64,000 nt of DNA from Candidatus Staskawiczbacteria bacterium RIFCSPHIGHO2_02_FULL_42_22 (GTDB taxonomy: Bacteria; Patescibacteriota; Minisyncoccia; Minisyncoccales; Staskawiczbacteraceae): NCBI GenBank assembly GCA_001820175.1, contig MHOT01000012.1, positions 124-64,123 on the forward strand, written 5' to 3'. The notes under the pieces were generated by a model. It worked only from the letters and a program-made list of their open reading frames with translations. It did not search any database and was not told where the DNA came from. Made by a program: the position numbers and the translations under genes. Positions 3,731-29,162 of this stretch are shown here, in pieces. Position 1 is the stretch's first letter. Each line of letters opens with the position of its first letter.

Positions 3731-3756
3731 ATTTTTAATATCATTAAAAATTAGCG

Positions 3757-4146: not shown

Positions 4147-4149
4147 ATT

Positions 4150-4650: not shown

Positions 4651-4653
4651 ATT

Positions 4654-5328: not shown

Positions 5329-5808
5329 TTCCGAATTATCAATTATCAATTTTCAAGTATCAATCAAGTTTTAAATTACTAAATTATCAATATGGAAAAG
5401 ATATTTGACCTAGAGGAAAGAACTATGGTTTTTGCAGAAAATATAATTGATTTAGTAAGATCAATAAAAAGTGACTCGGTAAATAATAGAATTATCACCC
5501 AATTAGTAGGTTCAAGTGGCTCTATCGGAGCAAATTATTGCGAAGCCACAGAAGGTGAAAGTAAAAAAGATTTTATTCATAAAATTGGCATCGCCAAAAA
5601 AGAAATAAAAGAAACCAAGCACTGGTTGCGATTATTAGCCAGAGCTAATCCTGAGAAAAAAGAAGAAATAAGAAAATTATGGAAAGAAGTACAAGAACTG
5701 CTATTAATATTCTCTAAAATAATCAGAAGCAGTAAAACCAACGCGATTGAAAATTAATTACTTGATCATTTATTGATACTTGAAAATTGATAATTGATAA
5801 TTAAGATC
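5329..5808. mobile_element. AT-rich inverted-repeat cassette 3 carrying a four-helix-bundle gene, inserted between the two VirB4 segments
   Basis: aattatcaattatcaattttcaagtatcaat (5335-5366) is mirrored by attgatacttgaaaattgataattgataatt (5771-5802), flanking ORF 5392..5757. Confidence 0.55.
5392..5757 (+). CDS. four-helix-bundle protein (PF05635 family)
   Basis: 121 aa. EERT..FAENII, SIGANYCEATEGESKKDFIHKIGIAKKEIKETKHWL; paralog of 3293..3655. Confidence 0.65.
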   Translation: MEKIFDLEERTMVFAENIIDLVRSIKSDSVNNRIITQLVGSSGSIGANYCEATEGESKKDFIHKIGIAKKEIKETKHWLRLLARANPEKKEEIRKLWKEVQELLLIFSKIIRSSKTNAIEN

Positions 5809-7611
5809 ATGGCTATTCCATTCTTCAAAAATAAAAAGGGGACAGAAATAGAAGAAGAAAAAATCTTTGGCCAAGACACCCTTAACATCAAGGACATCAT
5901 TGCTCCTCCTTACATTGGCATTACCCAGGATAATATTAAGCTGGGAGAAAAAATAGTAAAGTCATTTTTTATTTTCTCCTACCCCCGGTATATAAATACC
6001 GGCTGGCTGTCTCCGGCCATCAATCTGAATGTTCCCATGAACATTGCTTTTTTCATCCACCCGGTTGACAGTTCCCAGATTTTACGGAAATTGCGTTCAA
6101 AGGTGACCCAAGTTTCTTCAGAATTAATAGAGCGCCAGGAAAAGGGGCTTATCCGCGATCCGGCCCTTGAAACATCTTACCAAGACATTGAAAATTTACG
6201 GGATAAAATCACCACCGCCCAGGAAAAAATGTTTCAGTTCGGGCTGTATATTACTTTATTTGAAGAAAATCCTCAAACCCTCAAAGAAACTGAGGTAACC
6301 CTACGGTCTATTTTTGAATCACGGCTTATTTACATAAAACCGGCGCTCTTTAAACAAAAAGAGGGGTTTATTTCCACCCTTCCCTACGGTCTGGATATGC
6401 TTTCGGTTCACGTGCCCATGGACACCGACCCTTTATCCACTTCATTTCCTTTTATTTCGTTTGACTTAAGCTCAAATGAAGGGATTTTATACGGCATCAA
6501 CAACCATAATAATTCCCTGGTGCTCTTTGACCGCTTCACGCTGGAGAACGCAAACATGGTGGTCTTCGCAAAATCGGGATCCGGCAAGTCCTACGCCATA
6601 AAATTGGAAATTTTGCGCTACCTAATGTGGGGAATTGATGTTATTGTGGTAGACCCGGAAAACGAGTATGAATTTTTATCGGATGGCGTTGGGGGCGACT
6701 TTTTCAACATTTCCCTTACTTCAGATACCCATATTAACCCCTTTGACTTGCCTATGCCCGGAGCGGAAGAAAACCCCGAAGATATTTTGCGCTCTAACAT
6801 TATTAACTTGGTGGGGCTGTTGCGAATTATGCTTGGCGGATTGAGTGCAGAAGAAGATAGCATTGTCGACGAAGCCCTCACTGAAACCTACGCCATCCGC
6901 GATATTACGGCCCAATCAAACCCCGCCACCTGGCAGGAAAACATACCCGTTCTGTCCGACTTTGCGGAAATTTTGGAAAGCATGGCGGGAGCCGAATCGC
7001 TGGCCAGGCGCCTTAAAAAATTCACCCAGGGAACTTTTTCTGATTTTTTCAACCAAAAAACCAATATTGCCATGGATAAGCCATTTATTGTCTTTGGCAT
7101 CCGCGATATGGAAGAATCACTGCGGCCGGTGGCCCTTTTTATGGTCATGCGATACATTTGGAACACTATTCGCACCCACATCAAAAAGAGGATTTTAGTG
7201 GTGGACGAGGCCTGGTGGCTGACCCAGTCCGAAGACGGCGCTTCGTTTTTATTTAGCGTGGTAAAACGCGGCCGAAAATACTGGCTGGGGGTTACCACCA
7301 TCACCCAGGACGTAGAGGACTTTATGAAATCAAGTTATGGTAAGGCCATTATTACGAATTCCTCGCTGCAATTATTACTAAAACAATCACCGGCCACCAT
7401 TGACGTGATGCAAAATATATTCAATTTAACTGAACAGGAAAAAATGCTTCTTTTGGAAGCCAATGTAGGGGAGGGACTCTTTTTTGCCGGTAAAAAACAT
7501 GTCAGTATTAGTATAAAAGCCAGCTACACCGAAGACCAGATTATTACTACCAACCCGGGGGAGGTGGAAAAGATAAAGGAAGCTAAAAGGAAACTAAAGG
7601 AAAATCTATAA
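5794..7611 (+). CDS. virB4: VirB4/TraC/CagE-family T4SS ATPase (C-terminal, catalytic segment)
   Basis: Walker A VVFAKSGSGKSY, Walker B RILVVDEAWWL, motif VTTITQD. The N-terminal IIAPPYIGITQDNIKLGEKIVKSFFIFSYPRYINTGWLSPAINLN matches the conserved VirB4 region. The actual start is possibly the ATG at 5809. Confidence 0.8.
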   Translation: MIIKIMAIPFFKNKKGTEIEEEKIFGQDTLNIKDIIAPPYIGITQDNIKLGEKIVKSFFIFSYPRYINTGWLSPAINLNVPMNIAFFIHPVDSSQILRKLRSKVTQVSSELIERQEKGLIRDPALETSYQDIENLRDKITTAQEKMFQFGLYITLFEENPQTLKETEVTLRSIFESRLIYIKPALFKQKEGFISTLPYGLDMLSVHVPMDTDPLSTSFPFISFDLSSNEGILYGINNHNNSLVLFDRFTLENANMVVFAKSGSGKSYAIKLEILRYLMWGIDVIVVDPENEYEFLSDGVGGDFFNISLTSDTHINPFDLPMPGAEENPEDILRSNIINLVGLLRIMLGGLSAEEDSIVDEALTETYAIRDITAQSNPATWQENIPVLSDFAEILESMAGAESLARRLKKFTQGTFSDFFNQKTNIAMDKPFIVFGIRDMEESLRPVALFMVMRYIWNTIRTHIKKRILVVDEAWWLTQSEDGASFLFSVVKRGRKYWLGVTTITQDVEDFMKSSYGKAIITNSSLQLLLKQSPATIDVMQNIFNLTEQEKMLLLEANVGEGLFFAGKKHVSISIKASYTEDQIITTNPGEVEKIKEAKRKLKENL

Positions 7612-7721
7612 TTAAATTCGAAGCACGAAATCCGAAATACGAAACAAATTCAAATGTTCAAAATCTAAATTTTCAAAACTTGTTTCGAATTTCGACATTC
7701 GAATTTCGAGTTTGGTAAGTT
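7612..7721. repeat. AT-rich inverted repeat spacer
   Basis: cgaaatccgaaatacgaaacaa mirrored by ttgtttcgaatttcgacattcgaatttcg; no ORF inside. Confidence 0.5.
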
Positions 7722-8324
7722 ATGTCTAGCGAAGTCACATCGCCACAAGGATTATTAATGCTGATTATTGCCGGCTGCTTTGATATAGCCGCCATTCTTA
7801 TATTTCTTATTGAGGTGTGGGTTGATTTGGGAATTTTCAGCACTTTGGTTGGTTGGACTGGGTTGTTGTTTGTTTTGACATGGGCATTCCTTACCGGACG
7901 CATGTCAGTAACCGATATAACCAACATATTAAAAAGAAAATCAAAAAAGGGAAGTGGGTCGCCAGAAAAAATAGCCGGTTCGAGCGATATGAAGGATTGG
8001 AAACAAAATAAAGACGGGGTATATGAATTACAAAATAAAGAGTCACCAGAAACCGATGATGCAAATAATCAAGGAACCAGTGGGCTTAGTGGGTTTACAA
8101 AGAAATTTGGGTGGGGTTTAATTGTAGAATTAGTTCCATGGATTAGTGCGGTTTTACCAATGCTTACTATGCTTGTTTGGAGATTACTACGAGATGATAG
8201 TGGAGGAGTCAGCCAAAACAACGACTCCCAAGAAGAAGGCCAGTCAGGCACCTTAAAAATGCCGGATAAAAAACCAACCAGCGCGCCGCAAACGCCCGCC
8301 GCACCGGCTGAAAAAGCGGCGTAA
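7722..8324 (+). CDS. hypothetical membrane protein (3-4 TM, disordered Pro/Ala-rich tail) within T4SS-like locus
   Basis: Two N-terminal TM helices, a hydrophilic linker and a third TM (FGWGLIVELVPWISAVLPMLTMLVW). Confidence 0.35.
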   Translation: MSSEVTSPQGLLMLIIAGCFDIAAILIFLIEVWVDLGIFSTLVGWTGLLFVLTWAFLTGRMSVTDITNILKRKSKKGSGSPEKIAGSSDMKDWKQNKDGVYELQNKESPETDDANNQGTSGLSGFTKKFGWGLIVELVPWISAVLPMLTMLVWRLLRDDSGGVSQNNDSQEEGQSGTLKMPDKKPTSAPQTPAAPAEKAA

Positions 8325-8342
8325 AACTTGAGATTGCTTCGG

Positions 8343-8532
8343 CCGCGGCCCTATGGACATCACATCCAGAAACCGCACTCCAAGTCTTGCCGGATTTGCC
8401 AATCTTGGGCAGTTTTCACAAAAAATTTGTTCGGCGTAGCTACGGCTAGGCCTTACAAATTTTTTGCTCCAAGCCGCCCAATATTGCGAAACCGTCGGCA
8501 ACTTTAGTGCGGTTTCTGGATGTGATGTCCAT
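8343..8532. repeat. family-B MITE-like element (27-bp TIR atggacatcacatccagaaaccgcact), copy 1
   Basis: Perfect terminal inverted repeats. The internal sequence is the reverse complement of copy 32318..32497. Flanked by TA on both sides. Confidence 0.7.
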
Positions 8533-8540
8533 AACAACCC

Positions 8541-8686
8541 TAGATTGCTTCGTCGTCACGCCTGCGGGCGCAACTCCTCGCAATGACGGGGGACACAGAA
8601 TTCGCGTCATTGCGAGGAGCCCGCAGGCGACGAAGCAATCTAACGGTGAACGGAGATTGCTTCGCTGCGGCTCGCAATGACGGATT
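8541..8686. repeat. GC-rich palindromic element (GTCATTGCGAGG...GAAGCAATCT...AGATTGCTTC...CCTCGCAATGAC family), tandem pair
   Basis: Nested inverted repeats read directly: cgtcattgcgaggagcccgcaggcgacgaagcaatctaacggtgaacggagattgcttcgctgcggctcgcaatgacgg. Confidence 0.7.
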
Positions 8687-8773
8687 GATGACGAGCTTAA
8701 AACATTATTCACAGTTCAAGGAAAATATGATGTGTTATAAAATTTCCGAATATGGTAAAATATTCGAATAGTT

Positions 8774-11700
8774 ATGATTAAAAAACCGAAAAAACTAATT
8801 TATTTCTTTGCCGTTTTTTTGATAGGTTTTTTACTGTTAACGGTAAGCTATAGCGCTTTGGCGCTGGAAGTGCAATATCCTCACATTCCGGGATTTTCGG
8901 ATATTAAAAATGGAAGCACCCTACCCGATTATATTAATTATTTCTTTGGCTTTATTATGGTAACGGCCGGAATCATTGCGGTTATTTCCATTGCCATTGG
9001 TGGCCTGCGCATGTTAATTTCTGCCGGTAACCCGGGGGCCCGCGGCGAGGCGATGGACCGGATTTTTGGAGGAGTGCTAGGTATTATTTTATTGATGTTT
9101 TCCTACGTTATTTTAGAGACCATTAATCCCCAGCTGGTGAATTTGCAAGAAACAAGTGTAGTGTCTCTAAACAAAGGAATGTTTTTAGGAGAGCCGAAGG
9201 AGGGACAGGCCATGAATAATAATTCACACTCCATTACGGCTAATTTCGCCCAAAAATTACTAATAAATAACCCCCTTGCGGTTGCAATCGCGAAAGCCGA
9301 TGGAAGTTTCTATAGCCAATTTAATATTGAAGATTATGATATCACCCCATTGCCCGAATCCATAATTAATAGAACTTTCAAGCCGGGGAGTTTTGTTTGG
9401 AATAATTGTCCGGGGTGTGTTGAAGGAGACGGTCCGGGTAAATTTCTGCGGGTGACATACCGTTCTGAGGGCGAAGAGTTTAACGATGACGATACTGCGG
9501 CAAAGCGTGTTCATTTACCAGACATAGAAACTACTGACGAAAATTTTGACGAGGTTAGCTTCTCTCTTTATGGAGTAAAAGACCTTGATTGGGCCGAAAA
9601 AACGCCGGGGATCTATCTTTTTAAGACCGATGATTGCACGGGCCTGCCCACCCGTGTCATTACTAGCAGCGGGCAAATTCCCCCCGGTTTTCAAAACCAG
9701 GTGCGTTCAGCCCAGATTCTTAATGGGAATGAAGAGGGAGACCCCCGCTACGGATTTATTTTAAACACCAGCCCCGATTTAAAGGGCACCTGCAGCCAGC
9801 CGTTTATGAATTATGAGGCCAGCGACCCTGATTACGAGGACGGAGAAGACCATGATTCCGAAGACGAAGCCCCGTGTTTTCCAATTATTAACGACTCACC
9901 TTCGTGCGATTTTACGGTCCCCCAAACCCATAATGTATGCGTTAACCAAACCTGTACCCAAGTAGACGGAGTGGGGGACAATGCCTGCAACACTAGTTCC
10001 GACTGCCTGCCCCAAACCCACAACGAATGCGTCAACCAGGCCTGTCAAGAGATAAGCGGAGCTGGCGATAATAAATGTACCAGCAACAGCGAATGTCTTC
10101 CTACGTGTAATACCGATACACAAAAGTGCGAGGTGGGGGGCGGAGGAAAGAGTTGTAATTCTGATTCAGAATGTACAACTTCTGTTCATAACGAATGCGT
10201 CAACCAGGCCTGCCAAGAGGTAAGTGGAGCTGGCGATAATAAATGTACCAGCAATAGCGAATGTCTTCCTACGTGTAATACCGATACACAAAAGTGCGAG
10301 GTGGGGGGCGGAGGAAAGAGTTGTAATTCTGATTCCGAGTGCACACCGCAACTGGCAGTATTGACCATAAAAAAAGTGGTTGATAATGCGGGGGTTGGGA
10401 ACTCTAATTGCGAAAGTTTTCAGACCTATCGTCTATTTGATTATAATCACTCTGAATGGCTTGGGCTTAACCTATGTCCATCGGGTACGGTGGATATACC
10501 GCTTGAAGCAGGTTATTATGCATTTATGGAAAATGAGCGCAGGCCCCCCTACAAGGCAACTTATGAAGGCGCATGCCCCAGCACCAATATTATCCAAGTA
10601 ACCGAAGGCCAAAATGCCACCTGTACGGTTACTAATACATATAGTTATGGATGCAATAGCCAAAACCAATGTGTTGAAGGGGGCACGGTTAAAGGTTGTG
10701 ATATTGCCAACGGTGATGCCGACTGCACTGCGCCAACTGGCAAATGTAGCACTAACCCTAGCCAGACCTATACTTGTTCTCCGTCAAATAATGGCGCCCC
10801 TTGCACCTCTGCCAATGTATGTAAACCAAGATGCAATAGCCAAAACAAATGCGTTCAGGGGCTTACTGAAGGGCCAGAATGCAGTAATCTTGGCGGTGAC
10901 TGTACTGCATCCATTCTTGTAACAAAAGAATGTGATCCGGTTGGTGATCAAGGGCGCTTTATTATGAGAAAGGACGGTCAGAATATGAATGGCCCAAACA
11001 CTCCGGATATAGGATGTGGCGAAAGCGCAAGCGCCCAAGTAACACCGGGAAGAGATTATATCATAAGCGAAGCTCCTGGAAACAGTACCACTGATCTCTC
11101 TAAATATGATACAGTTATTGGCGGGGAATGCGACCGAAGCGGCCGATTTACTGCGAAGGTAGGTGTTAATAGGTGTACCATCACCAATAACAAGAAACAT
11201 GCGTATTTGCAAATAAAAAAAGAGTGCAGTCCCACAGATGATACTGGTCACTTTGACTTGCGAATTGATGGCATAACGACTTATAGTCAGAATATGGATT
11301 GTGTAAATAATACCACTACTCCACGTAGAGATGTGGGTACTGGAACCCATACCGTCAGTGAACTTGCGGGAAGTAATACCAATCTTTTCGATTACACCAC
11401 TACTATTGATTGCGGTTCGGGGGCGACCAGCGGAACTAGTAAAACTATCACCCTGCAAAAAGATGATGATAAACTCTGCACTATTACCAACACTAAAAAA
11501 CCACCCGGTTCCGCGTCTATAAAAGTAGTAAAACAGTGTAATCCGAGTAGCGACCCAGGTCGTTTTAAAGCAACTATTAATGGCGAAATTGCCAGCAACC
11601 AAGAATTAACATGTACCGGCCCCACGTCATCGGTAACTATTAATGTATCACCCGGAAATTATCTGGTAGGTGAAGTTGCTGGCAGTGGTACCAACCTCTC

Positions 11701-13414
11701 CCAATACAACCCACCGGTGTTTGGTGGGGACTGCACTCAAAGTGGACAAATTATTGCGGAAGTAGGAAAAACGAATTCATGTATTATTACTAATAGCCCC
11801 AAAACTGCTTCATCAGCAACCCTGCGTTTTCATAAGACCGTATTTAATAGCGACAACAATGGTAGTCCCGATTATTCTCCTAATGATTTCGGACCATTTA
11901 CCCTGCAAAATACATCTCGTTCATATACATTTAATGTAGATGCAAGCGGCGATGCCATAATTACTAATATTGTACCCGATACATATTCTATTATTGAAAA
12001 TTATCAAGATTATTATGAGGCAACTTATACCGGAACCGGTGGAGCATGTAACGGCAATAATATCATACCTTTAGGACCAGGAGAAACAAAGGAGTGCATT
12101 ATTTTTAATAGGTGGGAGGGAGGAATATTAGTGTTACATAAAATTATAAAGGATGGTGATTTAAAAAGCGAAGATTTTCTGCCATTTATTTACGATGCAG
12201 ACTTGGATTATGGTCAATTCTATACTTGGGGAGTACCAATACCAGTTTATGCTGGTCATCAGTTGTACGTCTCTGAAATCATACCTGCTAATTCTAATTA
12301 TACCGGCCAATTTGCTCCCCCAAGCGATTGCGATGCAAATGGAGGCATTATTCTTGACGTAGACCAATGGGCGGATTGCAATATTACTAATACCTATCAA
12401 CCTAGCCCATCAGACACAATGTTAACGGTAATAAAAAAAGTAGTGGGAGGACCACTGGATGGGCAATCAAGCCAGTTCCGGATGACCATCGCTGGTTCTG
12501 CTGGCCCTGCCGTACAGGGAGATAATTCTTTTCCTGGCACAGATGACCCCGGCACCCCAAAGATGTTATCTATAACTGGCCCTACCGACTACCGCGTCGA
12601 AGAATCATCGGTCAGCGGTTACACAATGACATATTATAATAATTGCTCAGGTACCATAAACCCGGGGGATCACATCATCTGCAGTATTACTAATACTTAT
12701 CAATTAGGAGCAGGATTAATAAACCCTCAAAACGCTATTTTGGCTAATGTTTCAACCAGTATTATTAATAAAATAAGGCCAGAAATAATTTCTCTTGCCT
12801 CACCCATGCGCATCCGGCTTGCCGCCACGGTTGATGATAGGGGAGGCGTCGGTAGCGACCCTATCGCATTCCCCGCCAGTTATATTTATGTTATTAAGGG
12901 TTACAACCCTGGCAATCCGGAGTTTGATACCCCGGGAACCGGGGTAAGCTTGTATGCCGGCACGCGCTACAAATACCTTCCACCTTCCACTATTAAACAA
13001 CACTTTATTTTAGATGGGACAACTGATTGCGACGACACCTATCAAACCTGCTGGCCCTACACCAACACCGACGATTTATTAAAAGAAATTGGCGATATCC
13101 AGCCGGGTTTTGGTCAAAACCAGGATATCTGCAAGCGAACCTATATTTACCCCTGCACCCAGTACATCGACCACCAGGGAAGCTACCTTACGGTTTTATA
13201 CACCCAAAACCAGGGAAACCCCTACAACCAAACCTGCAGCACTTTCATTAATTCGGTTGACTTTATCAGGGACACCAATAATATTCCCATAGGTAGCACA
13301 CCTATTAACAATCCCTTGCCCACCAATTCTAATATTGATGTAAATAGCGATATTAGTATTTTTGATAATAATAAATACGTCTGCAGAGTGGATATCTTCC
13401 CAATACTGCCGTAG
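8774..13414 (+). CDS. giant surface protein: VirB2/TrbC-like pilin N-terminal module fused to ~1400-aa cysteine-rich and repeat-rich extracellular region (putative T4SS-anchored adhesin)
   Basis: N-terminus has signal/TM, helix YINYFFGFIMVTAGIIAVISIAIGGLRMLISAG, short charged loop NPGARGEAMDRIF and a second helix GGVLGIILLMFSYVIL (VirB2/TrbC-like). These are followed by an acidic linker and four CxNQxCQxxxGAGDNKCTSNSECLP modules. After that come ten or more ~100-aa beta-rich repeats ending in C.ITNT. Confidence 0.5.
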   Translation: MIKKPKKLIYFFAVFLIGFLLLTVSYSALALEVQYPHIPGFSDIKNGSTLPDYINYFFGFIMVTAGIIAVISIAIGGLRMLISAGNPGARGEAMDRIFGGVLGIILLMFSYVILETINPQLVNLQETSVVSLNKGMFLGEPKEGQAMNNNSHSITANFAQKLLINNPLAVAIAKADGSFYSQFNIEDYDITPLPESIINRTFKPGSFVWNNCPGCVEGDGPGKFLRVTYRSEGEEFNDDDTAAKRVHLPDIETTDENFDEVSFSLYGVKDLDWAEKTPGIYLFKTDDCTGLPTRVITSSGQIPPGFQNQVRSAQILNGNEEGDPRYGFILNTSPDLKGTCSQPFMNYEASDPDYEDGEDHDSEDEAPCFPIINDSPSCDFTVPQTHNVCVNQTCTQVDGVGDNACNTSSDCLPQTHNECVNQACQEISGAGDNKCTSNSECLPTCNTDTQKCEVGGGGKSCNSDSECTTSVHNECVNQACQEVSGAGDNKCTSNSECLPTCNTDTQKCEVGGGGKSCNSDSECTPQLAVLTIKKVVDNAGVGNSNCESFQTYRLFDYNHSEWLGLNLCPSGTVDIPLEAGYYAFMENERRPPYKATYEGACPSTNIIQVTEGQNATCTVTNTYSYGCNSQNQCVEGGTVKGCDIANGDADCTAPTGKCSTNPSQTYTCSPSNNGAPCTSANVCKPRCNSQNKCVQGLTEGPECSNLGGDCTASILVTKECDPVGDQGRFIMRKDGQNMNGPNTPDIGCGESASAQVTPGRDYIISEAPGNSTTDLSKYDTVIGGECDRSGRFTAKVGVNRCTITNNKKHAYLQIKKECSPTDDTGHFDLRIDGITTYSQNMDCVNNTTTPRRDVGTGTHTVSELAGSNTNLFDYTTTIDCGSGATSGTSKTITLQKDDDKLCTITNTKKPPGSASIKVVKQCNPSSDPGRFKATINGEIASNQELTCTGPTSSVTINVSPGNYLVGEVAGSGTNLSQYNPPVFGGDCTQSGQIIAEVGKTNSCIITNSPKTASSATLRFHKTVFNSDNNGSPDYSPNDFGPFTLQNTSRSYTFNVDASGDAIITNIVPDTYSIIENYQDYYEATYTGTGGACNGNNIIPLGPGETKECIIFNRWEGGILVLHKIIKDGDLKSEDFLPFIYDADLDYGQFYTWGVPIPVYAGHQLYVSEIIPANSNYTGQFAPPSDCDANGGIILDVDQWADCNITNTYQPSPSDTMLTVIKKVVGGPLDGQSSQFRMTIAGSAGPAVQGDNSFPGTDDPGTPKMLSITGPTDYRVEESSVSGYTMTYYNNCSGTINPGDHIICSITNTYQLGAGLINPQNAILANVSTSIINKIRPEIISLASPMRIRLAATVDDRGGVGSDPIAFPASYIYVIKGYNPGNPEFDTPGTGVSLYAGTRYKYLPPSTIKQHFILDGTTDCDDTYQTCWPYTNTDDLLKEIGDIQPGFGQNQDICKRTYIYPCTQYIDHQGSYLTVLYTQNQGNPYNQTCSTFINSVDFIRDTNNIPIGSTPINNPLPTNSNIDVNSDISIFDNNKYVCRVDIFPILP
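10008..10340 (+). repeat. near-perfect tandem duplication (~150 bp x2) inside the adhesin CDS
   Basis: cacaacgaatgcgtcaaccaggcctgtcaagag...gattcagaatgtaca is repeated with about 7 substitutions. It encodes a duplicated HNECVNQACQE.SGAGDNKCTSNSECLPTCNTDTQKCEVGGGGKSCNSDSEC module. Confidence 0.8.
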
Positions 13415-13525: not shown

Positions 13526-14596
13526 GGTATAAAGGTAGGTAACTTGTTGCTAATTTTTGAAGTAGATATACCACTTAAAGAAATCCTTTCGCCTGCCCTT
13601 TAACAATCCGCGATGTTGTCGGTAAATAATTTTTAATCTTGAAAAATATCCCTCGATCTTGTTCGTGGTTGAAGGAATATTTTTATCTTTTAAATAATGG
13701 AACATGCTCGGCAGAGCGTTTATCAATAAATTTCTGGTTGCTTTAAGATCGCTGAAAACTTTATCCTTTGAAGACAGGAGGTTCACCGATTTTCCGTATT
13801 TCCTTTCCCATTTTTGAAAAGTATTTAAGAATATTTTTTTACCTCTTTCATTTTTAATTTTTGTAACAGATAGCAATATATCTCTTAATTTCTTGCTGGC
13901 CTCCAGCTTTGGATTTCTTCTTAACCATGATAACCCCTGCCGTTGAATGTGTGCCAAACATCTTTGTATGATAATATCTGGCCAGACATCTTTAATGGCC
14001 CTCATTACGCTTGTATTGCCATCTACCGTGATAGCCATGGGCATAATGCCGCAGCTCTTTGACTCTTCAAAAATTGATCTTGCATATTCGTAATTTTCTC
14101 TGATACAATATTTATGATTTACGATTTTACCATTCGAATTGTCTATTAGCACCATTAGACAATTTTCATGTTTGAAATATGTCCCATCAAAAAGTAAATA
14201 TTTTATTTGATGGTAATTTAGAGTTTTTTTATCCGGCGCTTTGTTCATCCAAAAAGATAATATTTGTTTTATCTTCCAAATTCCACGACGGCTAATACTG
14301 ACTAATTGCCTTGCCGAATAACCCTCAACAATCCACAGCTCAAACCATTTTCTTTCGTTAAATTCCTTGTTCTTGCGATTATGAAAAGTGTAGGTGTGCT
14401 TACAAATTTTACATCTATACCTCTGGTAACCGCATGAAGTGCGACCAAATAATTTAACATTCAAAGAACCACACTTTAGACAACTTTTTTTTCATAATAT
14501 TGAACTGATTTGATATTATTCCAGATTTTAATTGTAATTTACTCTCAAATTAGCACGAAATCCGCATTTTTAGCAACAAGTTACCTACCTTTATAC
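13526..14596 (-). mobile_element. IS1595-family-like insertion sequence with 27-bp perfect TIRs and 8-bp target duplication
   Basis: TIR gtataaaggtaggtaacttgttgctaa at 13527-13553, with its reverse complement at 14570-14596. The direct repeat tcattgcg occurs at 13518-13525 and 14597-14604. There is a single transposase ORF. Confidence 0.7.
13550..14464 (-). CDS. transposase (N-terminal zinc ribbon plus DDE domain; IS1595-like)
   Basis: C..C...C..C near the N-terminus (CGYQRYRCKICKH). DDE-region motifs LFDGTYF, ITVDGNTSVMRAIKDVWPD and TNKIEGYFSRLK. Length 304 aa. Confidence 0.7.
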   Translation of the reverse strand: MNVKLFGRTSCGYQRYRCKICKHTYTFHNRKNKEFNERKWFELWIVEGYSARQLVSISRRGIWKIKQILSFWMNKAPDKKTLNYHQIKYLLFDGTYFKHENCLMVLIDNSNGKIVNHKYCIRENYEYARSIFEESKSCGIMPMAITVDGNTSVMRAIKDVWPDIIIQRCLAHIQRQGLSWLRRNPKLEASKKLRDILLSVTKIKNERGKKIFLNTFQKWERKYGKSVNLLSSKDKVFSDLKATRNLLINALPSMFHYLKDKNIPSTTNKIEGYFSRLKIIYRQHRGLLKGRRKDFFKWYIYFKN

Positions 14597-14744: not shown

Positions 14745-15245
14745 TTATTTGGGACTTATCACAATCCGCCGCTCCGCCCCCTCACCCTGGCTTTCAACTA
14801 TTACCTCTTTATGTGACTCTAATTCAGTATGCACGATTCTCCTTTCATATGAAGACATTGTGGGCAGGGTTATGGGTTTTCCTTGCGCCAGGGCCTCGGA
14901 CACCGAATCATTGGCTATTTTTTTTATGTATTCAATTTTATTTTTTTTGTAGTCGTTAATATCTAAATATACATAAAAAAATTTCCCCAATTTTTTGGCC
15001 AGCATAATTCGCAGCAGGTAATTGAGGTCAAATAGCGTTTGGCCATTTTGGCCAATCAGTATTTGCGGCTCATCCAGCCGCACCTCTATGGTAACACTAT
15101 CAACCACTTCTTTTTGATCGGCATTATCTTCTGGGGCCTGGCCGGCCTTATGCTCAATATTAATGTCTTGAACTGGTAGCGTCAATTTTTGGAAAAATTC
15201 TGACACCGTTTCGCGTATATTTTTTATGTCTTGATCGTCTATCAT
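14745..15245 (-). CDS. khpB: RNA-binding protein Jag/KhpB (KH + R3H domains)
   Basis: C-terminal R3H motif ITLPTMSSYERRIVHTEL. Conserved position downstream of yidC. Confidence 0.7.
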   Translation of the reverse strand: MIDDQDIKNIRETVSEFFQKLTLPVQDINIEHKAGQAPEDNADQKEVVDSVTIEVRLDEPQILIGQNGQTLFDLNYLLRIMLAKKLGKFFYVYLDINDYKKNKIEYIKKIANDSVSEALAQGKPITLPTMSSYERRIVHTELESHKEVIVESQGEGAERRIVISPK

Positions 15246-15253
15246 AATTAATA

Positions 15254-15410
15254 GACCTGTTGCGTATTAAGGATTTACTGCAAATTGCATATTTCGGCCA
15301 TAAATTTGCTATAATTTTTCGGCGGGCCCTCTAGGCAAGCCGAAAAATTCTATCAAATTTCTGGCTCAAAATCTTCAATTTTCGTAACAATCCTTAATAC
15401 GCAACAGGTC
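15254..15410. repeat. family-C MITE-like element (conserved core ttttcggcgggccctctaggcaagccgaaaaattctatcaaattt, self-complementary termini), copy 1
   Basis: Termini are gacctgttgcgtattaaggatt and aatccttaatacgcaacaggtc. TA on both flanks. Confidence 0.65.
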
Positions 15411-15451
15411 TAATTCTTTAAATGTAACCTCTTGCGCCTCTCCCATATATA

Positions 15452-15550
15452 CTCGTCGTCATTGCGAGCGAGCGGCCGCAGCCGCGAGCGCGGCAATCTC
15501 CTTTTTTTTACGGGGATTGCTTCGGGCCTGCGGGTCCTCGCAATGACGAG
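15452..15550. repeat. GC-rich palindromic element overlapping the 3' end of yidC
   Basis: cgtcgtcattgcgagcgagcggccgcagccgcgagcgcggcaatctcc...ggggattgcttcgggcctgcgggtcctcgcaatgacgag. The yidC stop codon (15508) lies inside the element. Confidence 0.65.
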
Positions 15551-16287
15551 ATAGGGGGAATTACTTTTATATTTTTTGATCTTTTGAGAATAAACCATTG
15601 CTGCGCCATGGAAAATAATCCGCTTACAATCCAATATAGTCCCAGCGCCGATGGTAATTTTATAAGAATAATCACGGTAATAATAGGAAAAAGATATACC
15701 ATTTGTTTTTGCATCATGGATGCAATATCAGGGCCACTTTTTGCCACCCCCTTAATTGTCTTGGGAAGCAGCATTTTTGTTTGAAAAAATTGTACGGCTC
15801 CCGCCAACACTGCAAATATCATATTAGGGTCGCCTAGGTTAATAAGCCCCAGAAACATTGTGTTAATCTGCACGGGGTTTACCACAAATTGATATAAATG
15901 AGAAAGCTCTTCTGGTTTTAATCCATTCCAAAATACCCGATACAGGGCGATAAGAATAGGGAGTTGTATCAAGGCCAAAAAAAGGCCTGAAAACGGGTTT
16001 ATCTTTTCCCTGCGGTATAATTCCAGGGTCTCTTTGGCTTGCTTTTCCTTATCGTCTTTATATTTTTTTTGCAGTTCCCGCAACTGCGGCTGCAATTTTT
16101 GCATAGCCGCCTGAGAGGCAACGGCTTTCACTGAAAGCGGATAGATAATAATCCGAATAATCACTGTAAGAATAATAATAGCGATGCCAAAATCGTGGCC
16201 AGGCACATAATTATAAATAATCACCAGGAAATTAAAGAGGGGAAAGTATAAAAAAAAATCGAAAAAATTTACAATAAATTGGAACAT
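15508..16287 (-). CDS. yidC: membrane protein insertase YidC (short form); last ~18 codons encoded by a GC-rich repeat
   Basis: Multi-TM Oxa1/YidC pattern with conserved loop PQLRELQKKYKDDKEKQAKETLELYRREKINPFSG. The C-terminus ...SLRGPAGPKQSP is read from the repeat. Confidence 0.8.
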   Translation of the reverse strand: MFQFIVNFFDFFLYFPLFNFLVIIYNYVPGHDFGIAIIILTVIIRIIIYPLSVKAVASQAAMQKLQPQLRELQKKYKDDKEKQAKETLELYRREKINPFSGLFLALIQLPILIALYRVFWNGLKPEELSHLYQFVVNPVQINTMFLGLINLGDPNMIFAVLAGAVQFFQTKMLLPKTIKGVAKSGPDIASMMQKQMVYLFPIITVIILIKLPSALGLYWIVSGLFSMAQQWFILKRSKNIKVIPPISSLRGPAGPKQSP

Positions 16288-16440
16288 TATTACTTAATTT
16301 CTAATTATTCTAATTATTCTAATTAACCTAATCAAATATCAATAACTAAAATACTTAAATCCTAAAACGGTTTAGAGATTAGGTATTCACTTATTGGATA
16401 TTGATTAGAATAATTAGGTTAATTAGAAATTAGAATAATT
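16288..16440. repeat. AT-rich inverted-repeat spacer (empty cassette-like) between yidC and rnpA
   Basis: ttctaattattctaattattctaattaacctaatcaaat is mirrored by attgattagaataattaggttaattagaaattagaataatt. Same sequence style as the arms of cassette 1. Confidence 0.55.
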
Positions 16441-16779
16441 TTATATTATTCCCATCTTTCTAAAAGAATCACTGACGGTTTTCTGTATCTCTAAAAACTC
16501 TCTTTTCTCGATTCCAGCCAAACTAATAACAATAACATCAAATGATCCGTTTAATTCCCCCAATAAACCCGCAACTGCGTCTCGTAATCTCCTTTTTACC
16601 CTATTGCGTACTACGGCTTTTGGTGAAACCTTCTTACTGACCACAAAACCAAAGCGACTGGAAGGTAAATTATTTTTCACAGCTTTTACCAGTAAAAAAT
16701 CCTGCTTGACGCCCTTTCCCCCAGTAAAAACCTTATCGAAATCCTTTTTTTTGGTAAGTCGGTTTATTTTTGGCAACAC
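16441..16779 (-). CDS. rnpA: ribonuclease P protein component
   Basis: 112-aa basic protein with the RNR motif (RNRVKRRLRDA). Sits between rpmH and yidC. Confidence 0.75.
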   Translation of the reverse strand: MLPKINRLTKKKDFDKVFTGGKGVKQDFLLVKAVKNNLPSSRFGFVVSKKVSPKAVVRNRVKRRLRDAVAGLLGELNGSFDVIVISLAGIEKREFLEIQKTVSDSFRKMGII

Positions 16780-16899
16780 TTCTGCAAATTATCAATTATC
16801 AATTTTCAATGACCAATTTTCAATAACGGCGTCAATTGATAATTAGATAATTTAGAAATTGATTGATACTTGATAATTGATAATTGATAATTTCCACAT
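16780..16899. repeat. AT-rich inverted-repeat spacer between rnpA and rpmH
   Basis: tatcaattatcaattttcaatgaccaattttcaat is mirrored by attgatacttgataattgataattgataatt. Same sequence style as the arms of cassette 3. Confidence 0.55.
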
Positions 16900-17034
16900 T
16901 TACACCGAAAGCTTCTTCCTTCCCTTAGCTCTTCTTCGCGCCAAAACCTGTTTGCCTTTCTTGGTTTGCTTGCGCACTAAAAAACCGTGGGTTTTTTTTC
17001 TTTTTTTCTTCTTGGGGTTATACGTAAAACTCAT
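16900..17034 (-). CDS. rpmH: 50S ribosomal protein L34
   Basis: Hand translation of the minus strand gives [44 protein letters not shown]. Missed by the ORF track (below the length cutoff). Confidence 0.85.
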
Positions 17035-17296
17035 AATTGTATAATTCTCTTAATTAATATAATATGGTTACTATAGTATAAAAAAATCCCCGAGTCAATT
17101 GTGTAATTGCGCGTTTAATTTATTGTGCGTCTACCTTAAAATGTATCACACATATTATCCCCATCTTATCAACAACCTAGGTTTATTCTATTTTAATTTG
17201 ACTCGCGGGTTCAGTATTTGATATTTATATTATATAGTTTCTAAAAAAATAACTGCGTAATTTTGCGTTAATTTCCGCGTTTTTGCGCGACCATGT
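17035..17296. promoter_or_regulatory. dnaA upstream region with candidate DnaA boxes (oriC candidate)
   Basis: TTATCCCCA and TTATCAACA (17171-17193) each differ from TTATCCACA by one base. Divergent rpmH/dnaA arrangement. Confidence 0.45.
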
Positions 17297-18655
17297 ATGG
17301 ACCACAACGAACTCTGGCAACAAGTGCTGGCACAAATGCAATTTCATATTTCCAAGGCAAATTTTGCCACGTGGTTTCAAAATACCGAAATTATTTTAAG
17401 AGAAGATGAAAAGATGGTCATTTCCGTACCCAATGCTTTTTCTAAAGAATGGCTGAAGAACAAATATTATAAACTTATTCTCAAAACTATCCATACTACA
17501 GATAATTCTATAAAAGAATTGGAGTTTGTTATTAAACCTCAGTTATTAAAAAAAATTGACCAGAAAGAGGATACTAAAAAACCAGAAATAGAAACCGGGC
17601 AATTAAAATTTGAAGAGTTTAAGGTAAACAAAGAAACTAATTTAAATCCGCGCTACACCTTTGAAAATTTTGTCGTCGGATCATTTAATGAGCTGGCGTA
17701 TTCGGCCAGCTTGGCGATTTCAGAAAATGTCGGGACTGTGTACAACCCCTTATTTATTTATGGCGGCGTCGGTTTGGGAAAAACCCATTTAATACAGGCC
17801 ATTGGAAATAAAATACATGACAGCCCCAAAAAAAAGAAGGTAAAGTATATTTCCTGTGAAAAATTTGTTTCGAGCATTGTGTCGGGAATACGAAACCATA
17901 ATATTGATATTTTTAAAGCAAGTTTGTCTTTAATTGACGTATTAATTATTGACGACATCCAGTTTTTGGCAGGAAAAGATAAAACCCAGGAAGAATTCTT
18001 CCACACTTTTAATTCTCTATACGAAAAAAATAAACAAATCATTCTTTCTTCTGATCGGCCGCCCAACGCCATTCCTGAACTAGAAGAACGCCTGCGATCG
18101 CGTTTTGAAGGCGGAATGATCACCGACATTAGTCTACCGGATTATGAAACACGGCTTGCTATTTTAAAAACAAAGCTTCAAGAAAAAAATCTAAAACTAC
18201 CCGAAGATGTATTAGAATACGTCGCTTCTAACGTAAAAAAGAATATCAGGGAATTAGAAGGGGCCCTTAATAGTTTATTAATATATTATAAAACCAACAC
18301 CTCAATTCCTAACCTTGAAACAACTAAAAGATTATTGAAAAATTTTGTATTTTCTCCCTTTAATGTGGCAAATTACAAAAAAATCATTGAAATTGTTTCT
18401 AAATTTTATAATTTAGATGAAAAAACGATTTTTAACCCGACCCGCCGCAAAGAAATTGTTAGGCCCCGGCAAATTGCCATGTTTTTATTAAGAGAAGAAT
18501 TAAAATACTCCTTCCCGGCCATTGCCCGTAAATTTGGCGGAAAAGACCACACCACCGTGATTTACGCCCATAAAAAAATACTCCAAGAATGCCAACAAAA
18601 TAATAAACTCACTGAAGAATTAAATATGATAAAACAAAAAGTATATAGTGGTTAA
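17297..18655 (+). CDS. dnaA: chromosomal replication initiator DnaA
   Basis: AAA+ Walker A GGVGLGKTHLIQAIGN, Walker B LIIDDIQFL, sensor motifs, C-terminal DNA-binding domain. Confidence 0.9.
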   Translation: MDHNELWQQVLAQMQFHISKANFATWFQNTEIILREDEKMVISVPNAFSKEWLKNKYYKLILKTIHTTDNSIKELEFVIKPQLLKKIDQKEDTKKPEIETGQLKFEEFKVNKETNLNPRYTFENFVVGSFNELAYSASLAISENVGTVYNPLFIYGGVGLGKTHLIQAIGNKIHDSPKKKKVKYISCEKFVSSIVSGIRNHNIDIFKASLSLIDVLIIDDIQFLAGKDKTQEEFFHTFNSLYEKNKQIILSSDRPPNAIPELEERLRSRFEGGMITDISLPDYETRLAILKTKLQEKNLKLPEDVLEYVASNVKKNIRELEGALNSLLIYYKTNTSIPNLETTKRLLKNFVFSPFNVANYKKIIEIVSKFYNLDEKTIFNPTRRKEIVRPRQIAMFLLREELKYSFPAIARKFGGKDHTTVIYAHKKILQECQQNNKLTEELNMIKQKVYSG

Positions 18656-18689: not shown

Positions 18690-18975
18690 CCCACCGTCAT
18701 TGCGAGGCACACTGAAGCAATCCCCGTACAAAACGACGAGATTGCCACGTCGCTTGCGAGCTCCTTGCAATGAAGACACTGGGTCACTGATCCTATTTTA
18801 CACTTTTTGATTAGGGGGTGTGAGGGGTTACCGCCTCACCACCATCACTACCGTCATTGCGAGGAATCCGCAGATTCCGTGGCAATCCCTCAATAATACG
18901 ACTAGATTGTCCCGATGGTGGAGCCATCGAGGATCCTCGATAGAATCGGGACTGCGGGCCCTCGTAATAACAGTA
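18690..18975. repeat. cluster of GC-rich palindromic elements (3 units)
   Basis: ccgtcattgcgaggcacactgaagcaatcc..., cgtcattgcgaggaatccgcagattccgtggcaatcc... and attgtcccgatggtggagccatcgaggatcctcgat...atcgggact. Confidence 0.65.
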
Positions 18976-22924: not shown

Positions 22925-23215
22925 CAAGCAATCTGTGGGTAACCTCTCACACCCCCAATGTCATTCCCGACGCGCACGATCGGGAATCCAGGGTATCTTG
23001 TTTAGACCTCTTGCAAAATAAGGATTAGCTGAAAATTCCATATTTTGGCTGAAAATTTGCAATAATTTTTCGGCGGGCCTATGGGCAAGCCGAAAAATTC
23101 TATCAAATTTTCATCTAAAAATCTGTAATTTTCGCTCTAATCCTTATTTTACAAGAGGTCTTTTGAAAATCTTCTGGATCTCGCTTCAAAAGCCCGGGAT
23201 GACAACGAGAGGCGT
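22925..23215. repeat. GC-rich element split by a nested family-C element
   Basis: gtcattcccgacgcgcacgatcgggaatccaggg | family-C copy (gacctcttgcaaaataaggatt...aatccttattttacaagaggtc) | aaaatcttctggatctcgcttcaaaagcccgggatgacaacgagaggcg. An uninterrupted version is at 38574..38665. Confidence 0.7.
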
Positions 23216-23474: not shown

Positions 23475-23758
23475 TTTCTTAAATTATTCTAATTATTCTA
23501 ATTGCTCTAATTATTCTAAATAATTTCTAATGTCTAAATTTTTAACATTATAATTTAGGATCTGATTAGGTCAATTAGTATAATTAGGTTAATTAAACTA
23601 ATTTATTTTATCTACTTTCCCTATTATATTTTTTCATCTATCATTGTCAAGGGCCTCTATCCACAGCCCCTTAGAAATTGTCCCATAAGTCGCTTTTGAG
23701 GGCAATATTCTCTTTTTCGGCTACAAATATGGACTTATGAGACAGTTTCTTGGAATAG

Positions 23759-24271: not shown

Positions 24272-24395
24272 GAAAATTTGAAATTTGAAATTTTCAATTT
24301 GAAATCAATATTAAATGTCTAAATGATTAAATTTGAAAACACGGCATCGTTTTTTAATCATTTCAAATTCACTTTTTTCAAATTGATTTCAAATT

Positions 24396-25121
24396 TCAAA
24401 TTGTAAATTTCAAATTCGAGTAAATATCCTGCACCGCATCGTTTTCGTCTAGTGCCTCAAACAGTTTTTTGGCTTTTTCCCGATCTTTTTGGTCTATGGT
24501 GATTTCTTCTTTGGCAATCCACGATAAAGAGTTTGAATTCATTTTTAATCCTTTTTCTTCTAATGCTTTTTTAATAACCTCTAATTCTTCCGGTTTAGTA
24601 TAAACTAATATAGTATCTCCTTGCCAAAGCACATCGTCTGCCCCCACTTCTATGGCCAATAATTCTAATTCGTCTTTCGATTTTCCTTCCATAATCACCT
24701 CAATATATCCCTTTCTTTCAAACATCCAACGCACCGCTCCCTCTCCTGCCATTTTACCGCCATATTGACTTAAAATTCCTTTAATATCACCCAGGGTACG
24801 GTTTTTATTATCTGTAATTCCCTCCACAATCAAAGAAATTCCACCGGGGCCAAATCCCTCAAATGACACTTCTTCTAAGGCCTCACCTGCTAATTCCCCA
24901 GTACCTTTTTTAATCGCCCGTTCAATATTTTCTTTGGGCATATTAAATTCCCTGGCCTTTTCTATAGCGGCTTTTAACTGGATGTTGCTACTTATATCAG
25001 GCCCTTTTTCTTTTGCAGCAATGGTAATAACTCTTCCTATTTTGGAAAAGATTTTACCCCTTTTGGCATCGTTGGCGTTTTTAGTAGCCGCGACGGTTTT
25101 GAAATGAGAATGACCTGACAT
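24396..25121 (-). CDS. yebC: YebC/PmpR family DNA-binding regulator
   Basis: MSGHSHFKTVAATKNANDAKRGKIFSK signature. Confidence 0.85.
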   Translation of the reverse strand: MSGHSHFKTVAATKNANDAKRGKIFSKIGRVITIAAKEKGPDISSNIQLKAAIEKAREFNMPKENIERAIKKGTGELAGEALEEVSFEGFGPGGISLIVEGITDNKNRTLGDIKGILSQYGGKMAGEGAVRWMFERKGYIEVIMEGKSKDELELLAIEVGADDVLWQGDTILVYTKPEELEVIKKALEEKGLKMNSNSLSWIAKEEITIDQKDREKAKKLFEALDENDAVQDIYSNLKFTI

Positions 25122-27994: not shown

Positions 27995-28306
27995 ACTACC
28001 GTCATTGCGAGGAGTCCCGATCGCAATCGTGGACGACGAAGCAATCTCGTCATTTTGTATGGAGATTAGACCTGTCCCTAAATAAGGTTTCGTACGAAAA
28101 TAACAGATTTTGAGCTAGAAATTTGATAGAATTTTTCGGCTTGCCCTCTGGGCCCGCCGAAAAATTATAGCAAATTTGTGGCCAAAAGGTGTTATTTGCA
28201 GTAAAACCTTATTTAGGGACAGGTCTATTACTTCGTCGTTGTGACTCCTCGCAATGACGGGGTGGCCAGATTGCTTCGGGCCTGCTGGCCCTTGCAATGA
28301 CAAAGT
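27995..28306. repeat. GC-rich element with a nested family-C element (copy 3, TA-flanked)
   Basis: ccgtcattgcgaggagtcccgatcgcaatcgtggacgacgaagcaatctcgtcattttgtatggagat-TA-[gacctgtccctaaataaggttt...aaaccttatttagggacaggtc]-TA-ttacttcgtcgttgtgactcctcgcaatgacgg. Confidence 0.65.
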
Positions 28307-29061: not shown

Positions 29062-29162
29062 TTTTTTATTACTTCCTTATTTTATTCAGAAGTAATTTTA
29101 AAGATTTATTGATACTTGAAAATTGATAATTGGAAATTCCACTCCGCCCGCGGGCGGGGTGG

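Follow-up and report, generated by a model that had tools for sequence, protein, structure and literature searches.

The analysed stretch (in the following: the window) comprises 64,000 nucleotides (nt) of a metagenome-assembled genome of Candidatus Staskawiczbacteria (Parcubacteria/Paceibacterota); all coordinates refer to the window unless another locus is named. On its minus strand the genes rpmH, rnpA, yidC and jag form an operon in this order, which adjoins dnaA (17297-18655, plus strand) and dnaN: the first gene, rpmH (L34; 16900-17034), was assigned by translation and tblastn comparison with relatives, rnpA (RNase P protein; 16441-16779) by its match to PF00825 and yidC (15508-16287) by its 60KD_IMP match; jag (14745-15245) follows yidC. 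The subject of this analysis is the yidC/rnpA and rnpA/rpmH spacers (16288-16440 and 16780-16899), each of which is entirely taken up by a single long imperfect hairpin (termed U2 and U3, respectively), and their relationship to cassettes of similar architecture that enclose a gene.

The arms of the U2 stem (about 16294-16433) are built of tandem TTCTAATTA words, those of the U3 stem (about 16783-16896; minus strand) of AATTATC and AATTGAT heptamers. Tandem Repeats Finder reported three copies of TTCTAATTA in one U2 arm (16299-16325) as well as 5.4 copies of AATTATC (16787-16824) and 8.6 copies of AATTGAT (16834-16892) in the U3 arms, and an inverted-repeat search of the window recovered the arms of both hairpins (repeats I4, I7, I11 and I17). 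The minimum free energy of U2 was −44.4 kcal/mol on the minus and −44.1 kcal/mol on the plus strand (z −9.0 and −7.8), compared with about −19 ± 3 kcal/mol for dinucleotide shuffles of the same segment (16288-16440); the two strands of U3 gave −31.7 and −27.6 kcal/mol (z −5.4 and −4.3 versus shuffles). The preliminary description of both spacers as long inverted repeats made of tandem words is thereby borne out, as is its statement that no gene lies between the arms: according to the list of open reading frames (ORFs) of the window, no ORF of at least 40 aa is located wholly inside the arms of U2 or U3. The plus-strand ORFs 16604-16846 and 16877-17044 overlap the hairpins only partly and were taken as spurious because they run antisense to rnpA and rpmH.

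Both hairpins are tightly fitted between the genes. About 7 nt (AGTAATA) separate the U2 stem from the yidC ATG and 7 nt (TGCAGAA) the U3 stem from the rnpA GTG, while the rpmH stop codon and the beginning of the U3 stem are 2-6 nt apart. A terminator scan of 15200-17400 found no intrinsic terminator (GC-rich stem plus T-run) at U2 or U3, the stems being AT-rich and a T-tract absent. In the Rfam gathering scan of the window, the hairpins matched no family; only a transfer-messenger RNA (tmRNA) was returned.

Filled and empty versions of one unit

Four filled cassettes are present in the window, all on the plus strand and each with an ORF of the PF05635 family (23S rRNA-intervening sequence protein, S23p). 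Cassette 1 (3264-3731; left arm 3264-3292, ORF 3293-3655, right arm about 3686-3731) belongs to the word family of U2 and U4; the complementarity of its arms is imperfect and one word copy is missing. In cassette 2 (4161-4645; ORF 4207-4593) the arms (4161-4198 and 4608-4645) are complementary in 37 of 38 positions, and in cassette 3 (5334-5802; ORF 5392-5757), which shares the word family of U3, in all 31 positions (arms 5334-5364 and 5772-5802); the gene after cassette 3 starts with ATG at 5810. Cassette 4 (47992-48466; ORF 48069-48422) has GC-richer arms (47992-48015 and 48443-48466; 22 of 24 positions complementary) and is located between the divergent genes uvrB and ruvA, with 9 nt left up to the ruvA ATG; its S23p reading frame is interrupted by an in-frame TAA (48282-48284) with the rest intact (…LEIS*GSLKEAKY…), which may reflect recent pseudogenization, an error of sequencing or a case of read-through. 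The ORFs of cassettes 1, 2 and 3 matched PF05635 with E-values of 9e-14, 1e-31 and 1e-17, respectively. The cassette 2 protein (S23p_2) matched the Xanthomonas S23p XCC0516 (PDB 2GSC, five chains in the entry) with an E-value of 3.6e-23, and its subfamily also matches the bAvd-like family (PF22296 bAvd, related to PF05635).

The transcribed strand of U3 was aligned with the left flank of cassette 3 over 59 nt with four mismatches and two single-base gaps, the alignment ending exactly at the S23p ATG, and the plus strand of U2 with the right flank of cassette 1 over 67 columns. The alignment of the empty units with the cassette flanks extends beyond the palindrome itself. Opposite orientations aligned with clearly lower scores; on this basis, the element-sense strand of U3 is the transcribed minus strand, that of U2 (by homology with cassette 1) the plus strand, i.e. 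U3 lies in sense and U2 in antisense to the host operon. The two tandem words quoted in the preliminary description had 16 matches each in the window at up to three mismatches (expected: 0.66 and 1.38), an excess over chance of about 12-24 times, and these were confined to U2, U3, cassettes 1 and 3, 23478-23589, a solo arm of the TCAAT family (29107-29138, minus strand; partner arm absent nearby) and a few sites with three mismatches. The view that filled and empty pairs are versions of one structural unit is supported by these alignments. A ATTGAAAATT segment of the empty units was at one stage considered a remnant of the S23p C-terminus; this was withdrawn, as the ORF merely ends inside the first 3'-arm word.

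Low-complexity drift of AT-rich spacers, in which slippage would generate the tandem words and template switching would produce chance palindromes, might explain that the arms consist of short tandem repeats of variable copy number, that each unit has its own mix of words, and that relatives often possess short, unrelated spacers. Such an origin is nevertheless highly improbable in view of folds 4-9 standard deviations below those of shuffles, word sharing far above chance, non-repetitive flank and loop segments that are kept between units and cassettes and in an alignment of 22 family members, the existence of GC-richer units that share the architecture, and the association with one protein family.

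At least ten gene-less units (U1-U10) were found in the window, all in inter-gene spacers. U1 (7612-7715, plus strand; CGAAATN heptamers) lies between a VirB4-like gene and a gene for a 200-aa protein, and its words recur in a hairpin of the distant relative L044. U4 (23482-23596; TTCTAATTA family) is situated downstream of ruvC, 7 nt before the start of a 63-aa ORF, and U5 (24272-24416; AAATTTG heptamers) in the yebC/ruvC spacer, where its right arm overlaps the last yebC codons. U6 (34865-34955; GCTAAT words, family common with U10) separates the genes of a 5'-3' exonuclease and a HAMP protein; U7 (53739-53829; CCGAATTAT words) is located upstream of a NIF3-like gene and U8 (55643-55757) upstream of greA, whereas the rpmI/rplT and infC/rpmI spacers hold U9 (60878-60982, 7 nt before the rplT ATG) and U10 (61174-61273). 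Units stand inside classical operons (infC-U10-rpmI-U9-rplT; yebC-U5-ruvC-U4), and roughly a quarter of the gene junctions in the window carry one. The linker to the start codon measures 6 nt for U1, 7 nt for U2, U3, U4 and U9, 8 nt for U6, U7 and cassette 2, 6-7 nt for cassette 3 and 9 nt for cassette 4; a linker of 5-9 nt is accordingly common to word families of the window other than the TCAAT family. The six further gene-less pairs listed at the outset all fold as hairpins, with slightly different bounds, and 34865-34955 and 61174-61273 were added to them. Two features that had been emphasized were not supported: nothing links the units to the replication origin, as they occupy inter-gene spacers all over the window, and AT-richness is not a defining property, as GC-richer words occur in cassette 4 and in the relatives L001, L052 and L183.

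For the S23p protein of cassette 3 (S23p_3), which is 100% identical to a database protein of RIFCSPHIGHO2_02_FULL_42, more than 6,800 relatives were obtained from the database, many in Patescibacteria with 75-88% identity; the number for S23p_2 exceeds 2,000. In comparison with four homologues, the cassette 3 gene exhibited a proportion of nonsynonymous differences (pN) of 0.16-0.36 at saturated synonymous sites, and the ratio of nonsynonymous to synonymous substitution rates (dN/dS) was about 0.09 where computable. S23p is under strong purifying selection, and the low pN at saturated synonymous sites indicates a functional protein. All S23p homologues examined are sense-oriented between same-direction genes, with flanks of 30-160 nt. 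Inverted arrays of 7-nt words border most of them; L176, L052 and L081 show strong complementarity of these arrays, L179, L181 and L183/L185 a weak one. The arms hold about 4-5 words; in L087 a complete hairpin is present 3' of the S23p ORF instead of flanking arms. The arm words track the S23p subfamily: GAATCTT/TAGAATC were found with S23p_2 relatives of at least 72% identity to the window protein, TGAGGG at 66% identity (L183/L185) and ATAAGGG at 49% (L052), while S23p_3 relatives of at least 75% identity have TCAAT words.

Cassettes 1-3 are interleaved with genes of a type IV secretion system (T4SS)-like operon (PrgI, TraC-like, VirB4-like). S23p cassettes recur beside PrgI, TraC-like and VirB4-like genes in several distant Parcubacteria (L081, L181 and L183-L185) as well as in the window (35-13414), and a LAGLIDADG-domain intein is present in the VirB4-like gene of L183; this operon would seem to be a favoured site of selfish inserts. 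The arrayed arrangement of small ORFs with 60-150-nt imperfect inverted repeats between them (3264-5802) is also reminiscent of integron cassettes with attC-type sites, the empty units corresponding to cargo-free attC. This is the least probable of the explanations considered: integron traits (diverse cargo, attC after each ORF, intI) were absent among the window proteins scanned, where all cargo is PF05635 and no tyrosine recombinase was detected (a few ORFs being left out of the scan), the arms stand on both sides of the ORF rather than 3' only, the cassettes alternate with conserved operon genes, and further units are dispersed in housekeeping operons.

Dispersal, orientation and variation among relatives

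A metagenome scan with a 20-nt word of the U3/cassette-3 (TCAAT) family yielded 81 matches in 74 loci, about 63 of these matches being hairpin units of 75-215 nt. Flank-based de-duplication reduced them to 47 distinct sites, and a single contig has up to three copies; the three copies of L134 are about 85-90% identical (judged by eye). In L141, a hairpin of this family lies within a large subunit (LSU) rRNA gene (1432 bits in Rfam); it is inserted at about model position 583, where it replaces the tip of helix 25 with the family 5' word in rRNA-sense. Because of this position in helix 25, a single element family comprises both a bona fide intervening sequence (IVS) and mRNA spacer units.

The members of the family obey a strict geometry. 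Between same-direction genes 21 were sense and two antisense, one of the latter being the rRNA case (p 1e-5 to 7e-5), and in divergent spacers seven of eight units abut a gene start in sense (own reading of the site table). Counted from the last arm word, the start codon (ORFs of at least 80 codons) follows after 7 nt in 12 and after 6 nt in five of 23 cases (range 3-10). The linker sequence varies; the last arm word itself is nearly invariant GAAAATT and mismatched to its partner. Relative to the unit start, the upstream stop codon was found at −8 to +12 nt.

The yidC/rnpA and rnpA/rpmH spacers were compared in DnaA-anchored loci of 80 genomes. Most Paceibacteria have spacers of 0-10 nt at both sites or a yidD ORF between rnpA and yidC (69-78 aa in L007, L008 and L044; in the window only the hairpin is found there). 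Among the Staskawiczbacteria relatives the two sites vary. No unit is present in L003, L005 and L006 (0-4 nt at yidC/rnpA, 7-41 nt at rnpA/rpmH), and L059 shows a 42-nt yidC/rnpA spacer with a short 9-bp hairpin and a 4-nt rnpA/rpmH spacer devoid of a unit. L002 combines a unit-free yidC/rnpA spacer of 27 nt with a 154-nt rnpA/rpmH hairpin of AAATTTG words, L004 a 406-nt TTCTAATTA-family unit (with another element nested in it) with a 150-nt TTCTAATTA-family hairpin, L001 a structured spacer of 224 nt and different sequence with a 94-nt hairpin of CCCTAAA heptamers, and L044 (53% DnaA identity) a 344-nt spacer containing yidD and a tandem-word array with an rnpA/rpmH hairpin of U1 words. Similarly, the exonuclease/HAMP spacer holds a GCTAAT-family unit (U6) in the window versus a TCAAT-family unit in the L122 orthologue. 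Presence is thus sporadic even among close relatives, L003, L005, L006 and L059 being without a full unit at one or both sites. The preliminary description had reasoned that relatives with short, unrelated spacers would point to simple drift; such spacers do literally occur in these four loci, but the conclusion does not follow from them, since the short spacers of relatives together with dispersed homologous copies indicate insertion polymorphism with turnover, not drift.

The same data bear on the possibility that the hairpins evolved in the host as immobile inter-gene structures, serving as operon punctuation or as stabilizing or regulatory mRNA elements comparable to REP sequences or the RNase III sites of phage T7, with the S23p genes as ordinary operon members. 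The strict geometry at stop and start codons, the sense bias, the fixation of the cassettes in the population, the purifying selection on S23p and its recurrence in the T4SS-like operon of distant Parcubacteria would all be expected in this case. It is hardly compatible, however, with orthologous spacers that, in relatives both close and distant, are 0-9 nt long or contain hairpins of unrelated word families, with one word family at dozens of unrelated sites in up to three copies per contig, with a copy in helix 25 of the 23S rRNA, and with the antisense orientation of U2 and two family members; a host origin is therefore rated as improbable, if not as remote as drift or integron cassettes.

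Interpretation at the RNA level

Taken together, U2 and U3 are probably ORF-less palindromic elements of the IVS type that have colonised mRNA spacers and would be cleaved by RNase III. The full element consists of a gene for PF05635 (S23p, a four-helix-bundle, Avd-like protein) between inverted arrays of about 4-5 tandem words of 7-9 nt, and the empty element of two such inverted word arrays with a short loop; the elements begin within a few nt of the preceding gene's stop codon and leave about 7 nt up to the following start codon. The expression "mobile or processing-site element", used when the units were first noted, is appropriate in kind, given the PF05635 ORFs, the helix 25 copy and the variable presence; the associated idea of a footprint left behind by excision was not retained, and the empty units look like ORF-less derivatives or independent insertions. 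As far as sequence comparison allows, mobility is supported by the dispersal and by the polymorphism among relatives.

By analogy with rRNA IVSs, transcription of the operon would allow the arms to pair as an RNA stem of 30-55 bp, which RNase III would cut, separating the cistrons and, in the case of filled units, also releasing the S23p mRNA. The downstream gene would keep a short, A/U-rich, unstructured leader, suited to the near-absence of Shine-Dalgarno use: a Shine-Dalgarno-like motif precedes only 3-4 of 48 window genes, the upstream regions being A/T-rich, and translation initiation appears largely independent of such sites. Because these motifs are rare here, a stem end at −8 displaces no ribosome-binding site. 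The stop/start geometry may be just what makes an insertion tolerable, as the downstream gene would remain translatable.

Several observations weigh against this interpretation as colonising IVS-type elements. G-U pairs, which would reveal selection on the sense transcript, numbered 18 in sense versus 33 in antisense for the window units and 123 versus 108 for the family (Wilcoxon p 0.39 after site de-duplication); a hint of an element-sense bias in an early family sample (46 versus 20, p 0.06) was lost on proper de-duplication. RNAalifold analysis of 22 family members revealed 16 invariant pairs, no compensatory change and 13 one-sided changes from U-A to U-G, although this covariation test says nothing either way because the family is too conserved. 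As G-U pairs are not enriched in sense, the palindromes are equally good on both strands, and the case for a function at the RNA level is built on context, orientation and the precedent of IVSs rather than on covariation. The RNase III signature motif had no match in the window and the fetched loci (the scope being these DNAs only). Units were not significantly depleted in convergent spacers (2 observed versus 4.9 expected, p 0.11), and the orientation rule is not absolute because U2 lies antisense to its operon. No clear target-site duplication was detected when U2 and U3 were compared with empty orthologous sites, where the AATT...AATT ends would hide short ones, and to our knowledge S23p is neither a transposase nor a nuclease. 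Finally, the three cassettes of the T4SS-like operon are fixed across samples (look-ups of rnpA and cassette 3 gave the identical gene arrangement in all samples, i.e. no strain-level polymorphism), and S23p recurs in that operon in distant Parcubacteria, which would agree with vertical residence over long times no less than with mobility.

A different function would result if the palindromes carried promoters in the manner of Correia elements, the 3' arm providing an outward −35/−10 pair (TTGAAA or TTGATA, 17 nt, GAAAAT or GATAAT), a spacing that the 7-nt periodicity of the words yields automatically, and the 7-nt linker representing the −10-to-start distance of leaderless or near-leaderless mRNAs. 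Sigma-70-like sites are indeed enriched in 15200-17400 (18 versus 7.9 ± 3.0 in shuffles), several of them in unit arms facing downstream genes; in U3, TTGAAA-17-GATAAT extends from 16823 to 16795, and a second site (16815 to 16788) ends 8 nt before the rnpA GTG. Promoters would also account for the sense bias and the 7-nt linker, including the divergent spacers that need a promoter, and would suit a genome without Shine-Dalgarno sites. On the other hand, AT-rich repeats easily match the promoter consensus. The 5-9-nt linker is likewise seen where the end word does not resemble a −10 element (U6, ...GGCATCGCAT; cassette 4, ...CTCCACG; U1; U7), the last word is near-invariant GAAAATT though GATAATT would be nearer to the consensus, many units stand in tight operons that require no internal promoter (rpmH-rnpA, rpmI-rplT), and a separate promoter-like site precedes rpmH at a leader length of about 29 nt, so that leaderless starts are not the rule here. 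Promoter-carrying palindromes are accordingly considered unlikely as the explanation, although this function may coexist with an IVS-type origin.

An equally speculative extension would regard arms and S23p as a two-part RNA device. Either an S23p pentamer may bind the 4-5 heptamers of its own arm, one per subunit, comparable to TRAP, and toggle the stem between closed and open, thereby controlling RNase III cutting and translation 7 nt downstream; or the closed stem may join stop to start such that terminating ribosomes re-initiate, akin to ribosome shunting, and translational coupling is kept across an insertion of 100-450 nt. Both possibilities fit the 4-5 words per arm, the five chains of 2GSC, the tracking of words with S23p subfamilies at saturated synonymous sites, the near-invariant, mismatched last word and the stop/start geometry. 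If either were true, it would be the first function for IVS proteins.

Irrespective of such a device, the interpretation of U2 and U3 as IVS-type elements has wider consequences. Since 1990, IVSs have been regarded as oddities of rRNA genes whose origin, mobility and S23p role are unexplained, and no description of S23p/IVS-type elements in mRNA spacers was found in the open-access literature. Here, elements of this type with an intact, selected S23p and their ORF-less derivatives would occur in ordinary mRNA spacers of a minimal genome of the Candidate Phyla Radiation (CPR), and their measurable rule (sense, stop-adjacent, 7 nt before the start) makes the above questions testable. For annotation, the units mislead ORF and start-codon calling, and the thousands of database genes for a "four helix bundle protein" may mostly be cargo of such elements.

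Neighbouring repeats and comparison with known systems

Additional palindromic families are dispersed in the window. A 161-nt element (15252-15412), in which perfect outer arms of 24 nt surround an inner hairpin of 37 nt, takes up the jag/yidC spacer and leaves 6 nt up to the jag ATG; further copies are located at 28067-28227 and 22986-23179, and a related copy is the element nested in the yidC/rnpA unit of L004 (about 3400-3805). Another family of roughly 182 nt, with an inner hairpin and perfect terminal inverted repeats of 28-31 nt (TATGGACATCACATCCAGAAACCGCACT), has three copies (8352-8533, 32317-32498, 56494-56681). GC-richer hairpin repeats (TGTCATTCCCGCGAAAGCGGGAATCCAG and relatives; 57406-57478, 49158-49230, 18740-18887), which are located in inter-gene regions, among them the dnaA-dnaN spacer, yield spurious ORFs, and two near-perfect palindromes of 38 nt (36466-36503 and 37046-37083; TATACTCTAAATTCCGAAGCTTCGGAATTTAGAGTATA, 37 of 38 positions identical) bracket a PaaX-like gene. 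Within coding sequence, MurE (49727-51184) contains about 19 aa (about 50735-50805) that are inserted in frame when compared with the solved structure PDB 4bub; the insert is composed of the heptamer words AAATCCT, AAACTCT and CAAAATT in the manner of a solo arm, and a perfect hairpin lies just upstream. UvrB (45918-47975; probably, translation truly starts from the ATG at 47975 rather than the TTG at 48017) has an in-frame insertion of about 40 aa (residues 342-383, about 46868-46991) relative to solved UvrB structures, which coincides with a GC-rich, strongly folding segment; heptamer words at 47258-47287 of uvrB were rejected as a further insertion, none being apparent there relative to the same structures.

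At the replication origin, DnaA-box-like TTATCAACA sites are situated at 17166 and 19113 in the rpmH-dnaA and dnaA-dnaN spacers. The dnaA-dnaN spacer of many relatives (L006-L062) is 200-330 nt long, extremely AT-rich and strand-asymmetric in its fold (e.g. −13.8 versus −25.5); it is probably oriC and distinct from the class of the hairpin units, and a hairpin census over the 80 dnaA loci was set aside, as these spacers confound the count. Elsewhere, the tmRNA gene (61868-62217, minus strand; tag ANLFNKQPALAYA) lies beside smpB, and a Mutator/IS256-like transposase gene (13550-14464, minus strand) is found downstream of jag, its surroundings being unrelated.

Among known repeats, dispersal in numerous short copies of similar sequence that end in inverted repeats (about 47 sites, up to three per contig) is a trait of miniature inverted-repeat transposable elements, but no parent element with a transposase for the same ends was found, the only arm-associated ORF being S23p. 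Correia elements (Neisseria miniature insertion sequences, NEMIS) are inverted repeats of about 100-150 bp that are dispersed between genes and co-transcribed with them, their hairpins being RNase III substrates and some carrying outward promoters; they share a single conserved consensus of the terminal repeats, duplicate a TA target and lack an associated ORF family. The units of the window resemble them as dispersed inter-gene inverted repeats of similar length, but differ in belonging to many 7-9-mer word families, each tied to an S23p subfamily, with no target duplication seen. Rickettsia palindromic elements (RPEs) and the repetitive extragenic palindromic (REP), bacterial interspersed mosaic (BIME) and enterobacterial repetitive intergenic consensus (ERIC) elements are short palindromic repeats that spread in small genomes and are tolerated where least harmful. 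They represent different sequence families without an S23p partner, and we know of no start-codon spacing rule for them; the heptamer insertion in MurE, and possibly the unrelated GC-rich insertion in UvrB, resemble in-frame RPE insertions. Avd of diversity-generating retroelements is a pentameric four-helix-bundle protein that binds nucleic acid. The match of the cassette proteins to PF05635 and the bAvd-like character of S23p_2 recall it, whereas its genetic context (reverse transcriptase, template repeat, variable repeat) was absent among the window proteins scanned. In the early mRNA of phage T7 and in rRNA operons, long imperfect stems are cut by RNase III to separate the products; the units are likewise long imperfect stems between cistrons or enclosing an ORF, but constitute dispersed repeat families with an ORF rather than fixed, host- or phage-specific sites.

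The closest correspondence is with the IVSs of 23S rRNA, which occur with or without an S23p ORF in helices 25 and 45 of Salmonella, in Leptospira and in helix 45 of Coxiella burnetii. In contrast to them, all units of the window lie between protein-coding genes and none in an rRNA gene, they follow the stop-adjacent, start-minus-7-nt geometry with sense bias, and they are known here from sequence alone, while RNase III excises IVSs from the transcript, and re-ligation does not follow. The Coxiella IVS is a 428-nt element in helix 45 with a 28-bp terminal inverted-repeat stem, which RNase III cuts mid-stem, and with tandem GACAGAT heptamers ahead of its S23p ORF (PMC4990558). Tandem heptamers next to the ORF are equally typical of the window cassettes, whose S23p is under purifying selection, unlike the decaying and probably untranslated ORF of Coxiella. 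Insertions in CPR rRNA genes include ORFs annotated as 23S_rRNA_IVP as well as many short insertions at classical IVS sites (PMC11270868). As in rRNA IVSs, the terminal inverted repeats of the window units form a long stem (31/31, 37/38 and 22/24 in the cassette arms), the large version has a PF05635 ORF in the loop and the small one is an ORF-less hairpin (100-200 nt in small IVS versions), the distribution among relatives is sporadic, and the U3/cassette-3 family itself has a copy in helix 25 of a 23S rRNA gene.

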